Origin: Chiloscyllium plagiosum
Taxonomy: Eukaryota
Reading direction: 5' to 3'
Assembly (NCBI RefSeq): GCF_004010195.1
Contig: NC_057718.1
Span: 104,317,722-104,337,721 of the forward strand
Length of the DNA: 20,000 nt
The translations under genes were made by a program, and so were the position numbers. How positions within the stretch are numbered: position 1 is the first letter of the stretch; every line of letters starts with the position of its first letter. The notes under the pieces are model-generated. The model was not told the origin of the DNA, made no database searches, and saw only the letters and a list, made by a program, of their open reading frames with translations. Below, piece after piece: positions 3,768-20,000 of this stretch.

Positions 3768-3961
3768 TGTACTTGAAAATCTGAGGAGTAAGAGACTCGA
3801 TGTTTTGGGCATGAGCCCTTCATCAATCCCTTCCCCACATTCCTGATGAATGGCTTCCGCCTGAAACATTGACTCTCCTGCTCCTCGGATGCTGCCTGAC
3901 CTGCTGTGCTTTTCCAGCACCACACTCTGATCTCCAGCATCTGCAGTCCTCACTTTCTCCC
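3768..3961 (+). mobile_element. Fold-back Penelope-like pLTR insert with decayed hammerhead motif, nested in the Gypsy element
   Basis: TSD TGA(C/T)TGGAGAGATG at 3754-3767 and 3962-3975; inverted arms about 3779-3825 and 3844-3890; CTGATGA at 3843-3849 followed by ggc-ttcc-gcc then tGAAAcattga. Confidence 0.75.
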
Positions 3962-6000: not shown

Positions 6001-6215
6001 GGGTCTAGACTAGAGTGGTGCTGGAAAAGCACAGCCAGTCAGGCAGCATCCGAGGAGCAGGAAAATCAACGTTCCGGGCAAAAGCCCTTCATCAGGAAGA
6101 GCTTTTGCTCAAAACGTCGATTTTCCTGCTCCTCGGATGCTGCCTGGCCGGCTTTGCTTTTCCAGCACCATTCTAGTCTAGACTCTGATTTCCAGCATCT
6201 GCAGTCCTCACTTTT
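6001..6215 (+). mobile_element. Fold-back Penelope-like pLTR insert with decayed hammerhead motif
   Basis: TSD GCCA(T/C)AAGTATTTCCT at 5985-6000 and 6216-6231; arms about 6003-6090 and 6096-6183 with a 5-nt loop; minus strand reads ttcCTGATGAagggcttttgcccGGAAcgttga. Confidence 0.85.
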
Positions 6216-7363
6216 GCCACAAGTATTTCCTCTCAGCCGTTCAGCAGATTTGATTGTCTCTGTTTCTTACGGAAATACACAGACACGAGCTAACTCACTG
6301 AGCTTTCCTCACAGAAAAGCTATGGACCTGTTCTGGTAATGTCTACTTGCACTGCTAAAAAAAGCTTTAGCCTTCTTTTCAGCTCTGATGAACTGGGGAT
6401 GACCAAAATCAAACTTCCTTTCTGCTGGATTGGATCTTTACCTGCTTCGGAATGGAATCTACTTATGGCCATTGGCTTCTCTTTCTGCTGGCTATGAGGG
6501 GTAGCTTTTGAATGACAGGCCTGCTGAGGTAGATGTCAAAGATCCCTCAACACTACTTGGGAAGGAGAATGGAATCCTCCCTTGGTGTCCAGTGTCACAT
6601 TTCACTGGAATGGTACACTGGGAATTGAGCCCTGCTATTTCTGGAGTAACAGACATGTTGGTTGAAGGGCCTGTCCTTGTGTTGCACTGTTCTATGTTCT
6701 ATGCATTAAGTTATGCAAAATTCCCCAATGTCCCAGTTTTTAGACGCAAATTGTAAGGAAGTATGGACCAGATCTCTGCCATTAACAAGAATTAACAATA
6801 AATAGAAACTAACTATAGGTGAACAATTAGGTCAACATATAACGCTACTAGTTTTAATTCTAACCCCCTTATAGAACTCTCCCTATGCATGCATGCTGAC
6901 AAACACAAAAACAGGGAAGGCTGTTAAATGGTCCCCACAGGATTCACTGAGATAATCCCTTTGGCTTGTCAGAACTTGCCACTCCTCAATACTTTTACTT
7001 GACCGCAGGAAGGACAGAGCAACTGTTCGTAACTCATAAAGTCTGCTTTATTTGTTACAAGCAACAGCGTGCAGCAACTGGAGAGGGAAAATAAAGTGGC
7101 TTTCATTAGGCTTTAGAGTGTTTTTTTTTACACTACCTTCCTATCCAGAGATCTCATGGATTCTTACTAATTATTCAGACCCACAAGGTGTTCAGCTGCC
7201 AGCCAGCCAATCACATAGTTGTTATCAGGCAGAAGGCCATGGCCATTGGTCATCATTCTACTGACCAATCAGCTACTTGTTGTCATTGGAATTGCATTCA
7301 GTTCATCCGCAACTAACCTTCCCCTCACTGGTTGACCAAGTAACAGTGTGACCAGCAATTACA

Positions 7364-7577
7364 ATGATAAAAATAGGAATTGCTGAAAAAGCTCAGCAGG
7401 TCTGGCAGCATCTGTGAAGAGTAATCAGATTTAACTTGGTTCTGAGGAAGGGCCAGCCGACCCGAAATATTAACTCTGATTTCTCTCCCACGGATGCTGC
7501 CAGACCTGCTGAGTTTTTCCAGCAATTTCTGTTTTTGCTTCTGATTTCCAGCATCTGCAGTTCTTTTAGTTTTAATT
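7364..7577 (+). mobile_element. Fold-back Penelope-like pLTR insert, second family, with hammerhead motif in the loop
   Basis: TSD CAGCA(A/G)TTACA at 7353-7363 and 7578-7588; arms about 7369-7434 and 7470-7536; gtt-CTGAGGA(7442-7448)-a-ggg...ccc-GAAA(7464-7467)-tatt-aac. Confidence 0.8.
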
Positions 7578-9880: not shown

Positions 9881-10072
9881 TGATGTGGAGATGCAGTGTT
9901 GGACCGGATGGACAAGGTCAGAAATCACACAATTACCAGGTTATAGTCCAACAGGTTTATTTGAAATCACAAGCTTTCGGAGCGCTGGCCCTTTCTCAGG
10001 TTTTACCTGATGAAGTTCGTGATTTCAAGTGAACCTGTTGAACTATAACCTGGTGTCGTCTGAATCCTGACC
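9881..10072 (-). mobile_element. Fold-back Penelope-like pLTR insert, third unrelated family, with decayed hammerhead motifs
   Basis: TSD AGTCTGAG(C/T)A at 9871-9880 and 10073-10082; arms about 9916-10001 and 10005-10072; minus strand CTGAgaaagggccagcgctccGAAAgcttgtg; the + arm has CTGATGA at 10007-10013 with stem II deleted. Confidence 0.8.
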
Positions 10073-13375: not shown

Positions 13376-14242
13376 TTCTGTAATCTCTCTAATGTTCTCT
13401 AATCCCCTCTACAATCATTTCAAACTGACAAGGATTAAATTACTGTTCGCACTCAAACCAGTTCAATACGGAGATCATCCCCAACACACCAGCACATGAA
13501 ACATAAATCACAACCAAGCCACATCAGAATATAATTAGAGAAGCTAAAGAGATGAAAACGTGGATGCAATTGTACTGTCGCTGTTGTTGGCTGTGCTACT
13601 CAGGATGAGAGTGGGACATCGCTCACTGATGCCTGAGCTTTGAAGTTTCTTCTTAGGAATATTTTTAAAGGGGCAATACGCTGGGAACACCACTCTGTTT
13701 CATCTCAGAGAAAGACAACAGCATTGAAACAGTATTATCCTATCCTTCAGAAAGTCTTAGGAAGGAGATACTGGCTAATGTAAGTTCACAAGAATGGTAT
13801 CTGGATTTCAGGGGTTAATTTATGAGGAGAGATTACACAAATTCAGTCTGTTTTCTATAGACATTAGAAGGTTAAGGGATGATCTCATTGAAGTCTTCAA
13901 GATACTAAAGGGAAAGACAGGATAGATAAAGACAAACTATTCCCACTGGTTGGGGATTTTAGAACTCAGGGCATAGTCTGAGGATTAGGGTGAAACCGTT
14001 CAGGAGAGATGTGAGGAAGCACTTCCACACACAAAGGGTGGGAGAGGTTTGGAAACCCTTTCCACGAATGGCAGTGGATGCTGGATCAGTAGTTAACTTT
14101 AAATCCAAGATAGATCATTTTTGTTAAGCAAGTTATTAACGGATATGGTAAAAACAATGACTGCAGATGCTGGAAACCAGATTCTGGATTAGAGTGTTGC
14201 TGGAAAAGCACAACAGCTCAGACAGCATCCAAGGAGCAGGAA

Positions 14243-14278
14243 AATCGACGTTTCGGGCAAAAGCCCTTCATCAGGAAT
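14243..14278 (-). ncRNA. Minimal type I hammerhead ribozyme motif (mirror copy)
   Basis: Reverse complement is identical to 14311-14346: attcCTGATGAagggcttttgcccGAAAcgtcgatt. Confidence 0.7.
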
Positions 14279-14310
14279 ACAGGCATAGTGCCTGAAGGGA
14301 CTCTGCCTGT

Positions 14311-14346
14311 ATTCCTGATGAAGGGCTTTTGCCCGAAACGTCGATT
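14311..14346 (+). ncRNA. Minimal type I hammerhead ribozyme motif
   Basis: CTGATGA (14315-14321), extra A, stem II GGGC-tttt-GCCC, GAAA (14335-14338), C-GTC (loopless stem III, predicted cut after 14342); stem I weak (attc/gatt). Confidence 0.7.
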
Positions 14347-14599
14347 TTCCTGCTCCTTGGATGTTGTCTGAGCTGCTGTGCTTTTCCAGCACCACTCTGA
14401 TCTAGAATTAAGGGATATGAGCCAAGGGCAGGCCTATGGAGTTAGTCTGTGATCACATTAAATGGCTGAACAGGCTTGATGGGCTGAATGTTCCTATGTA
14501 ATTTCACAAACAAAGTCTTTAGGAAGCCCTCAAGTCCAGAGTAACAGAATTAAATTGTACAGGAGTTTAAGGCAGTTGATATTTTCTACAGCTGCAGAG

Positions 14600-14887
14600 A
14601 GATGGTTAGCACTGCTGCCTCACAGCGGCAGGGACCCAGGTTTGAGTCCAGCCTCGGGTGACTGTCTGTGTGGAGTTTGCACATTCCCCCTGTCTTGGTG
14701 TGGGTTTTCTCCGGGTGCTCCGCTTTCCTCCCACAGTCAGTCCAAAGATATGCAGGTTAGGGTGGATTGGCAATGGGAAATGTGAGGTTCTGGGAATAGT
14801 GTGGGGAGCTGGGTCTCGGTGGGATACTCTTCAGAAGTTTGGTGCAGAAGTGATGCACCAAATGGCCTCTTCTGCAATGTAGGGATT
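14600..14887 (+). mobile_element. HE1-type V-SINE
   Basis: tggttagcactgctgcctcacagc head, V-domain ctgtgtggagtttgcacatt...ctccgggtgctccg.tttcctcccacagtc, CR1-like tail aatggcctcttctgcaatgtagggatt. Confidence 0.85.
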
Positions 14888-15579: not shown

Positions 15580-15886
15580 TAGTGGCAGAGTGATAATGTC
15601 ACTGGACTAGTAATCCAGAACATGGGTTCAAATCCCACCAAGGTGAAACTTGAATTCAATATTTTTAAAGATCTGGAATAAACAGCTCGTCCAATGGTGA
15701 CCAGATAACCATTACCGATTATCGTAAAAACCTATTTGGTATATTAATGTACTTTAGCGAAGGAAACTTATGTGGTGCGGCCTACATGTGACTTCAGACC
15801 CACAGCAGTGTGATTGACTCTTAACTGCCCTGTGGGCAATTAGGGATGGACAATAAATGTTGGTATGACAGTAACGCCCTCATCCC
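15580..15886 (+). mobile_element. tRNA-derived SINE, near full length
   Basis: A-box-like tggcagagtgat, B-box ggttcaaatcc, and body shared with 11155, 13140 and 16030 copies. Confidence 0.75.
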
Positions 15887-16029: not shown

Positions 16030-16475
16030 GGGTGTATTGTTCAGTGGACCAACATGCAGTCTCTCCCTCAGCAATGGCCCAGACTAAAATACTGGGGAGA
16101 TAGGTTCAGTTGAACAGTAAACTTGTGAGATTTAAATTCAATTAATAAATCCAGAATATATAGCTCACCTCAGTCAGAGTGAATACAAAACTACTGTTTG
16201 CCATAAAAGCCCATCAGGGTCACCAAAGTGCTTTCCGCAGGGAAATCTGTCATCTTTACCTGGTCTGGGCCTGTATGTCAGTCCACAGCTATGGTGGACT
16301 GATTGACTCTCAAGGTAAACGCCTATGAGAAAGCGAGGATTACAGATGCTGGAGATCAGATTCGAAAGTGTGGCAGGCCAGGCAGGATCCGAGGAGCAGG
16401 AGAGTTGACGTTTCGAGCATAAGCCCTGCTCAGTTAGGAACGGGCAATAAAACGTGGCACTGCCAGCAACGCTAG
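16030..16475 (+). mobile_element. Decayed copy of the same tRNA-derived SINE, interrupted by a pLTR-like arm
   Basis: aaaagcccatcagggtcacc...gggaaatctgtcatctttacctggtctgggcctgtatgt; the tail resumes after 16427 with ttaggaacgggcaataaa. Confidence 0.65.
16327..16427 (-). mobile_element. Single-arm remnant of the hammerhead/pLTR family, truncated at stem II
   Basis: gagaaagcgaggattacagatgctggagatcag...ttgacgtttcgagcataagccct; homologous to the 3768-3961 long arm; CTGATGA absent. Confidence 0.75.
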
Positions 16476-18209: not shown

Positions 18210-19673
18210 TCAAATTTCTGTGACCATATGCATGTCCAGTAGTCTCTTAAATGTCCCCAACGACCCTGCCTCCACAACTGCTGCTGGCAACACATTCCAT
18301 GCTCTCGCAACTCTTTGTGTAAAGAACCTGCCTCTGACATCCCCTCTATACTTTCCTCCAACCAGCTTAAATCTATGACCCCTCGTGTTAGTCATTTCTG
18401 TCCTGGGAAATAGTCTCTGGCTATCGACTCTATCTATGCCTCTCATTATCTTGTATACCTCAATTAGGTCCCCTCTCCTCCTCCTTTTCTCCAATGAAAA
18501 ATGTCCAAGCTCAGTCAACCTCTCTTCATAAGATAAGCCCTCCAGTCCAGGCAGCATCCTGGTAAACCTCCTCTGAACCCTCTCCAAAGCATCCACATCT
18601 TTCCTATAATAGGGTGACCAGAACTGGACACAGTATTCCAAGTGCAGTCTAACCAAAGTTTTATAGAGCTGCAACAAGATCTCACGACTCTTAAACTCAT
18701 ATCCCCTGTTAAAGAAAGCCAAAACACCATATGCTTTCTTAACAACCCTGTCCACTTGGGTGGCCATTTTAAGGGATCTATGTACCTGCACACAAAGATC
18801 CCTCTGTTCCTCCACATGGCCAAGAATCCTATTCTTAATCCTGTACTCAGCTTTCAAATTCAACCTTCCAAAATGCATCACCTCGCATTTATCCAGGTTG
18901 AACTCCATCTGCCATCTCTCAGCCCATCTCTGCATCCTGTCAATGTCCCGCTGCAGCCTACAACAGCCCTCTATACTGTCAACAACATCTCCAACCTTTG
19001 TGTCATCTGCAAACTTGCTGACCCATCCTTCAATCCCCTCATCCAAGTCATTAATAAAAATTACAAACAGTAGAGGCCTAAGGATAGAGCCCTGTTGAAC
19101 ACCACTCACCATAGACTTCCAGGCAGAATATTTTCCTTCTACTACCACTCGCTGTCTTCTGTTGGCCAGCCAATTCTGTATCCAGACAGCTAAGTTCCCC
19201 TGTAGGTAAAAACAATGACTGCAGATGCTGGAAACCAGATTTTGGATTAGTGGTGCTGGAAGAACATAGCAGTTCAGGCAGCATCCGAGAAGCAGCAAAA
19301 TCGACCTTTCGTGATGAAGGGCTTTTTCCTGAAACGTCGATTTTGCTGCTCCTCGGATGCTGCCTGAACTGCTGTACTCTTCCAGCACCACTAATCCAAA
19401 TACTAAGTTCCCCTGAACCCCATTCCTCCTGACCTTCTGAATGAGCCTACCATGGGGAACCTTATCAAATGCCTTGCTGAAGTCCATATACACCACATCC
19501 ACAGCTCGACCCTCATCAACTTTTCTAGTCACATCCTCAAAGAACTTGATAAGGTTTGTGAGGCATGACCTGCCCCTCACAAAGCCGTGCTGACTGCATT
19601 TAATCAAGCCATGCTCTTCCAGATGGTCATAAATCCTATCCCTCAGAATCCTTTCTAACACCTTACAGACCAC
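18210..19673 (-). CDS. CR1 ORF2 reverse transcriptase reading frame (487 aa) including a 71-codon in-frame insertion; probably non-functional
   Basis: ORF track; QGNL is duplicated on either side of a foreign peptide; the frame is disconnected from upstream ORF2 piece 19734-19967. Confidence 0.75.
   Translation of the reverse strand: MVCKVLERILRDRIYDHLEEHGLIKCSQHGFVRGRSCLTNLIKFFEDVTRKVDEGRAVDVVYMDFSKAFDKVPHGRLIQKVRRNGVQGNLVFGLVVLEEYSSSGSIRGAAKSTFQEKALHHERSILLLLGCCLNCYVLPAPLIQNLVSSICSHCFYLQGNLAVWIQNWLANRRQRVVVEGKYSAWKSMVSGVQQGSILRPLLFVIFINDLDEGIEGWVSKFADDTKVGDVVDSIEGCCRLQRDIDRMQRWAERWQMEFNLDKCEVMHFGRLNLKAEYRIKNRILGHVEEQRDLCVQVHRSLKMATQVDRVVKKAYGVLAFFNRGYEFKSREILLQLYKTLVRLHLEYCVQFWSPYYRKDVDALERVQRRFTRMLPGLEGLSYEERLTELGHFSLEKRRRRGDLIEVYKIMRGIDRVDSQRLFPRTEMTNTRGHRFKLVGGKYRGDVRGRFFTQRVARAWNVLPAAVVEAGSLGTFKRLLDMHMVTEI
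19203..19402 (-). mobile_element. Fold-back Penelope-like pLTR insert within the CR1 RT
   Basis: Perfect 13-bp TSD CTAAGTTCCCCTG at 19190-19202 and 19403-19415; arms 19241-19310 and 19331-19400; central gTGATGAagggctttttcctGAAAcgtcga; 38-nt tail. Confidence 0.9.
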
Positions 19674-20000
19674 AGAGACTGACTGGTCTGTAATTGCCGA
19701 GGATTTCCCTATTTCCTTTCTTGAAGAGAGGAATTACATTTGCCTCTCTCCGTCCTCAGGTATGACTCCAGTGGAGAGCGAGGATGCAAAGATCTTCATA
19801 AATGGCGAAGCAATCGCATTTCTCGTTTCCCAAAGCAGCCGAGGACAAATCTGGTCCGGGCCTGGCGACTTGTCAATCTTAATGTTTGACAAAATTTTCA
19901 GCACATCAGCTTCCTCTATCTCTATCCATTCCAGCATGCACACCTGCTCTTCAAAGGTTTCATTCACTACAAAGTTTGTTTCTTTCGTAAAGAAAGAAGC

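Follow-up and report, generated by a model that had tools for sequence, protein, structure and literature searches.

A hammerhead-bearing 259-nt palindrome in the Chiloscyllium plagiosum genome: a probable 5'-truncated, head-to-head insertion of a Penelope-like retrotransposon

A stretch of 20,000 nt of the Chiloscyllium plagiosum genome (contig NC_057718.1; hereafter the window) contains a palindromic insert of 259 nt at positions 14148-14406. The insert interrupts a dispersed repeat on the plus strand (14030-14520), which we take to be the 3' end of a CR1-type LINE, and it is bordered by target-site duplications (TSDs) of 13 nt each, at 14135-14147 on the left and 14407-14419 on the right. 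The left TSD differs by one substitution from the right copy and from the empty sites, and the empty-site paralogues identify the right copy as the ancestral state. The assignment of G14147 is ambiguous, as the final base of the TSD is also the first base of the end of the Penelope-like element (PLE) family described below. A search for paralogues of the host repeat gave 2,223 candidates, of which 40 were scored and 7 inspected across the site; in all 7, the left flank is contiguous with the right one and the 13-mer occurs once, which confirms that the insertion and its TSD, as proposed in the preliminary description of this DNA, are real.

Of the 108 positions in the two arms of the palindrome (14183-14290 and 14299-14406), 101 are complementary, and an inverted-repeat finder extends the arms to 113 nt at 94%. 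The stability of the hairpin greatly exceeds chance (fold energy of -210.1 kcal/mol, z = -27.6, with an equally stable fold in 0 of 200 shuffled sequences). A tail of 33-35 nt (14148-14182, minus strand) is present on a single arm only and forms the 3' terminus of the element; long copies encoding a reverse transcriptase (RT) and an endonuclease (EN), namely L031 and L035, end likewise, and the tail probably marks the first start of reverse transcription. The tail-bearing arm (14183-14299, minus strand) represents the PLE 3' end (pLTR), 5'-truncated about 152 nt from the terminus. The inverted tail-less arm (14300-14406, plus strand) is a second 5'-truncated pLTR copy, which ends at the tail boundary, and both arms meet in a head-to-head joint at 14291-14300. 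The inverted arms of about 108 bp and the 34-nt tail that had been described earlier are therefore present.

Each arm holds a minimal type I hammerhead core (CTGATGA-A-GGGC-TTTT-GCCC-GAAA-CGTC), which starts at 14315 on the plus strand (14315-14342, C17 at 14342) and at 14274 on the minus strand (14247-14274, C17 at 14247), precisely as had been noted. The two cores stand head-to-head on opposite strands, and no tandem array was found at 14148-14406. Both arms match the CUGANGA, GAAA and NUH core and have an extra base before stem II, the G10.1-C11.1 pair and a palindromic 15.2-16.2, features which bear out the proposed identity of a minimal PLE hammerhead. The motif in its core form was found 154 times in 263 sequences (995 kb, family-enriched by retrieval) and never after shuffling. 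The suggested Rfam search of the window returned 19 matches at E <= 5, none of them to a hammerhead family; they are sub-threshold and mostly miRNA hairpins. Another sub-threshold Rfam match, to tRNA (24.7 bits), lies at 15582-15639, and the stretch at about 14600-14800 is presumably tRNA-derived and SINE-like.

A helix I of 4-5 bp is lacking in the window subfamily, whose stem I consists of 2 bp, a U.U mismatch and 1 bp; such a helix is found in a young sister subfamily (6 motifs) and, with compensatory changes, in a second family (2 motifs). The preliminary description was right that stem I is weak, from which it concluded that this copy may be inactive; the weakness is a subfamily-wide trait and not decay of the present copy, ATTC/GATT being the majority form in a group of 75 motifs. 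From family to family, position 7 and loop II are variable and stem II remains paired; the copies are few, and the search pattern fixes the core letters. No extended conserved stem I was seen by eye.

An isolated motif of the window subfamily favours a misfold (-11.4 vs -5.7 kcal/mol), and the best fold of the young sister subfamily motif, which has a perfect 4-bp stem I, is the hammerhead fold. In the palindrome, the complement precedes the hammerhead core on both strands; at all six prefix lengths tested per strand, the probability of stem II was 0.0 and the core was 99.9% paired, and a hammerhead-like fold costs about 60 kcal/mol in the full element vs about 4.6 in a single arm. These results run against the earlier suggestion that a ribozyme is presented whichever strand is transcribed. 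Read-through RNA from either strand is predicted to form a hairpin of about 110 bp that would bury the hammerhead and be unable to cut, and a role of the hammerhead, if any, would lie in the RNA of the parent element. Dimer co-folding (minimum energy) yielded no active dimer for either subfamily, which is weak evidence either way. In one raw poly(A) single-cell run, 2,080 RNA reads fell on the family 3' end (L031:280-900), in both orientations and with no pile-up of ends, and a second run gave 0; the excess of A>G changes in these reads is confounded by the reference copy's own changes and lacks a DNA control.

The nature of the parent element was apparent from 20 copies that match the tailed arm only, which were compared for extension beyond it. 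Most of them diverge mutually at about 150-400 nt from the tail, and L031 and L035 remain aligned over about 970 nt. On the opposite strand, both contain broken frames for RT and GIY-YIG together with 3' untranslated sequence, the hammerhead and the tail of the window copy. The sense strand of the element is thus the minus strand, with the tail at the 3' end, and the window copy consists of a stump about 152 nt long plus an inverted stump joined to it. Window positions 14147-14300 are identical to L031 at 146 of 154 positions and to L035 at 142 of 151, and the two arms correspond to the terminal ~150 and ~140 nt of the long element. The GIY-YIG domain of L031/L035 was recognized with E = 8.9e-5 (above the Pfam cut-off) and the RT with E = 8e-4 (below the cut-off). 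In the sister subfamily, L159 contains RT and EN in one stop-free frame (RVT_1, E = 4.9e-8; GIY-YIG, E = 3e-4, just under the cut-off). Both the origin from a PLE pLTR and an RT/GIY-YIG protein as the mobilising enzyme, as put forward previously, are borne out by these copies. An RT piece used as a separate query gave 44,796 candidates, of which 150 were scored. The nearest database proteins to the young sister subfamily come from Chiloscyllium (83%), Mobula (73%) and Rhincodon (70%) and are unnamed or 'uncharacterized'.

The RT-EN linker of L031, L035 and L159 has a Zn-finger-like C-x4-C-x2-C-x-H motif. Since a Cys motif in this linker is described as marking Neptune or Nematis PLEs (PMC8557442), the parent points to one of these two groups and is likely of the Neptune type, the motif being shared with Nematis. 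In 18 long loci, no full-length copy of the window's exact subfamily with a 5' pLTR was found; these loci are 5'-truncated, gapped or members of sister subfamilies, and in none of the 18, many of which are gapped, is a direct 5' pLTR joined to a complete ORF. The search for an autonomous PLE with this pLTR, recommended earlier, therefore succeeded as far as L031 and L035, whose frames are broken, but produced no full-length copy. The young subfamily (L159, L162, L167, L170 and L172) is 96-99% alike and has long stop-free RT and EN frames. L173 and the 5' part of L159 contain tandem duplications within the PLE frames, in which the frame stays open.

The palindrome is one of tens of thousands of similar PLE stumps in this genome of 3.56 Gb. 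The first 32 nt of the tail (14147-14178) have 18,528 exact copies, and a 20-nt word across the centre of the window copy occurs 4 times genome-wide. Two exact inverted half-cores within 40 nt were found at 1,728 loci, and the first 50 of these have 47 distinct centres (by eye). A looser pattern, which includes sister subfamilies, gave 45,159 strand-counted matches; as 12 pairs among the first 100 listed matches represent one locus twice, the number of fold-back loci is estimated at about 40,000.

Several related sequences lie in the window itself. One of them (19205-19402) is a same-subfamily fold-back that turns earlier and has a TSD of 13 nt; it sits in a LINE-type RT frame (18210-19733, minus strand; RVT_1, E = 7e-22), which is stop-free across the insert, and paralogues lacking this insert were found (L090, L059 and L070). 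Sister-subfamily copies are located at 6004-6216, 3776-3960 and 16326-16433; two are fold-backs with a right-hand tail and TSD-like flanks, and one is a single arm. At 7369-7570 lies the terminus of a PLE-like family of more distant relationship; its hammerhead-like core is decayed, and it has a short inverted arm (arms of 48 nt, separated by 72 nt). A 42-nt inverted repeat of an unrelated repeat family occupies 9935-10054. As sequence like it also flanks L008 beside a hammerhead-like motif, it may represent a fold-back from a second PLE family.

For a comparison of fold-backs, 90 loci were sampled among the first 100 exact tails listed; the sample covers the initial 9 Mb of a single contig and is biased to unmutated tails. 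Fold-backs were called with a BLAST-based rule, and two tandem loci were each counted twice. Of these loci, each anchored at the tail, 24 are immediate fold-backs and 45 carry a lone arm at the anchor; another 7 were classed as complex, and 14 adjoin an assembly gap. The 24 fold-backs have 24 distinct pairs of end points, every turn point being different, and a TSD of 12-20 nt was recognized in 19 of them, against none among 342 mismatched controls. In 13 of the 24, the end of the tail-less arm falls at position 31-37, and in no case does this arm enter the tail (minimum, 31); in 7 more, it ends at 46-51, adjoining an indel of the reference copy, which is probably an alignment effect. In 8 of the 24, the tail-less arm exceeds the tailed one by at least 20 nt (maximum, 105 nt).

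The concordance of the arms was studied in 38 fold-backs (25 from the sample, 12 chosen by query similarity and the window copy). Arms within an insertion differ at 17 of 269 diagnostic non-CpG sites (6.3%), compared with 43.7% between insertions and a background of 4.2%, and discordance as low as this was reached in none of 2,000 permutations. Both arms carry common subfamily variants, which fits a single source for the two. Two different RNA templates per insertion found no support as a general rule, the discordance being near background. The few discordant loci (L075, L104, L135 and L071) were complex or ambiguous when viewed.

Joints between arms (n = 36) show clear microhomology of 1-6 nt in 10 cases, are blunt in 3 and contain extra or unaligned letters in 23; many joints are perfect short palindromes. 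The filler at some joints repeats nearby element sequence (e.g. L010, L022, L110 and G000:C1:38264086), in a manner reminiscent of the insertions templated during polymerase-theta end-joining. At the window's own joint, microhomology amounts to at most 1 nt, yet this joint occurs 4 times, in copies that differ at diagnostic sites and have the tail on the longer arm in two cases and on the shorter arm in two. Among the first 100 fold-back matches listed, three recurrent joints account for 9, 6 and 5 (by eye); of these 20 loci, 13 carry the tail on the short arm and 6 on the long arm, and 1 has no tail. One and the same joint occurs in different subfamilies, and the joint with 9 copies comes with 4 different loop or core variants. 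The copies of one recurrent joint have their tail on the same arm in 8 cases out of 9, so that some re-copying, of limited extent, is conceivable.

Arm ends were also inspected for an in vivo footprint of hammerhead cleavage. Locally, 4 of 195 arms end exactly at the cleavage site, and genome-wide end patterns occurred 823 times at this site vs 236 times one base before and 420 times one base after it. The pile-up is dominated by a single microhomology joint, recurrent in L183-L211 (18 of the 30 cleavage-site loci), in which one arm's cleavage site is connected, with stem I as microhomology, to the base that opens the core of the opposite arm. Among the first 100 fold-back matches listed, this joint contributes 2 (3 if a duplicated variant is counted), vs 9, 6 and 5 for the other microhomology joints (by eye), and it makes up about 1-2% of fold-backs. 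As it is no commoner than other microhomology joints, there is no special enrichment and the footprint was rejected.

We consider that the 259-nt palindrome is a 5'-truncated PLE insertion with two head-to-head, hammerhead-bearing 3' ends, likely built in one insertion and likely a dead end (probability of about 0.88). In the proposed mechanism, the PLE endonuclease would make a staggered cut, with the two nicks 13 nt apart, and each freed target end would prime its own cDNA on the uncleaved element RNA, one cDNA starting at the end of the tail and the other about 35 nt further in. Both cDNAs would halt early, and their 3' ends would be united by end-joining, often at a microhomology of 1-4 nt and sometimes with templated filler. 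Such two-ended priming would explain why there is a TSD, why the tail is one-sided, why the outer end is fixed and the centre variable, and why either arm may be the longer. Both arms run 40-50 nt past the cleavage site, indicating that they were copied from RNA which had not been cut there. In in vitro experiments, a lizard PLE protein is reported to cut and extend both target strands, to use two start sites that bound the tail and to use uncleaved RNA (PMC11167929). We see about an even chance that the approximately 40,000 fold-backs as a whole record two-ended PLE priming from start sites a tail length apart, with microhomology joining of the cDNAs by the host, which would seed perfect hairpins that silence their own ribozyme. 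The argument for dual priming comes from end statistics, and a second arm that is the longer of the two could also be the outcome of a snap-back followed by trimming of the first.

The same PLE origin and dead end would hold if the mirror arm arose by self-priming (snap-back) of the nascent strand, e.g. on an antisense template, as has been proposed for rotifer PLEs. This route overlaps the explanation preferred here, which it changes in one step, and, given a PLE insertion, we regard it as rather unlikely. Head-to-head PLE palindromes are read in this way in PMC3846280, many joints are perfect short palindromes, and variants common to both arms are also predicted by snap-back. Against it stand the tail-less arms that are longer by at least 20 nt (8/24, up to 105 nt) and the fact that this arm halts at the tail boundary, copying neither tail nor flank, as well as the extension of both strands and the two start sites seen in vitro for another PLE (PMC11167929).

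The preliminary description favoured a non-autonomous, retrozyme-like palindromic mini-retroelement, which would be transcribed, self-cleave and be re-copied as a unit by a PLE enzyme. The recurrence of joints (the window joint 4 times and others 9, 6 and 5 times among the first 100 listed matches), the joint in which 8 of 9 copies agree in the side of the tail and the pLTRs described as acting in cis to move other sequence (PMC3846280) can be cited in its favour. However, spreading as a unit is contradicted by 4 exact centres against 18,528 exact tails, by centres that are mostly unique (24 different turn points in 24 fold-backs, 47 centres in the first 50 of 1,728 loci), by the 4 window-joint copies, which differ at lineage-diagnostic sites and divide 2:2 in tail side, and by the 4 loop or core variants of the 9-copy joint. 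There is also no head-to-tail array at the site, and the core is predicted to be fully paired on both strands; we therefore judge this possibility very improbable. Still further from the data is a MITE, in which the arms would be the terminal inverted repeats of a DNA transposon. The insert is indeed small, non-coding, TSD-flanked and built of long inverted repeats, but the tail insets one arm, TSDs are 12-20 nt, lengths vary continuously and 45 of the 90 sampled loci show one arm at the anchor, while long copies lead into RT and GIY-YIG rather than a transposase, so this explanation, named earlier as one that could overturn the ribozyme reading, has practically no chance of being correct.

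If two-ended priming is the actual route, it would explain at one stroke why the pLTR is inverted, the tail one-sided and the TSD long, and tens of thousands of hairpins could feed small-RNA or editing pathways. The family constitutes a large natural test of PLE integration, bearing on the origin of inverted repeats and tails, which have been called 'still undefined features' of PLEs (PMC8557442). Arm-length asymmetry, the stop at the tail boundary and arm concordance are scalable genome-wide and may be used to weigh dual priming against self-priming. In view of the sub-threshold miRNA matches, such hairpins could be misread as miRNA precursors, MITEs or retrozymes in cartilaginous fish genomes.

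The architecture is already published for PLEs, and the window copy is an ordinary truncated fold-back insertion. We found no account of this shark PLE family or of arm-length statistics, which is weak evidence, as subscription journals and repeat databases were mostly outside the search. Typical PLE insertions are described as having heavy 5' truncation, an adjacent inverted truncated copy and a tail of 30-40 nt (PMC8557442). The shark family resembles the EN+ PLE units of PMC8557442 and PMC3846280 in truncation, the inverted copy, the tail at one end, the TSD, the pLTR hammerhead and a parent with RT plus GIY-YIG at the C-terminus. The unit in the window differs from those presented there in consisting of two pLTR stubs only, with no ORF between them, and the family differs in its TSDs (12-20 nt vs 8-10 nt in the rotifer examples) and in the estimated 40,000 such fold-backs within one genome.

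The cores are like the minimal hammerheads of metazoan PLEs described in PMC4209133, with CUGANGA, GAAA and GUC, an extra base before G10.1-C11.1 and a loopless palindromic stem III. Helix II is 4 bp here vs 7-8 bp in the Schistosoma families, and the U.U mismatch in helix I of the window subfamily sets it apart from the hammerheads of that report; activity here is putative. Dual PLE hammerheads on opposite strands, 100-700 bp apart, were noted in the same source, as was the low activity of the minimal PLE hammerhead even as a dimer (PMC4209133). Dimer cleavage by small PLE hammerheads is attributed to Lunse et al. in a review (PMC6765202), and the lizard PLE hammerhead is reported to cut only with the protein present (PMC11167929). 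The latter belongs to Poseidon of Anolis carolinensis (PAc), which shares with the family analyzed here a tail between two start points, uncleaved RNA and a hammerhead near the 3' end of truncated copies; PAc (PMC11167929) is placed in the Penelope/Poseidon clade, whereas the window family has the Cys-rich RT-EN linker that is a Neptune/Nematis trait. Non-LTR retrozymes are likewise small, non-coding, pLTR-derived and equipped with a type I hammerhead, but they are presented as head-to-tail repeats of a fixed monomer with circular RNA (PMC7229834; bioRxiv 10.64898/2026.07.22.740005), whereas the window element is head-to-head, belongs to a population of variable length and carries its cores on opposite strands.
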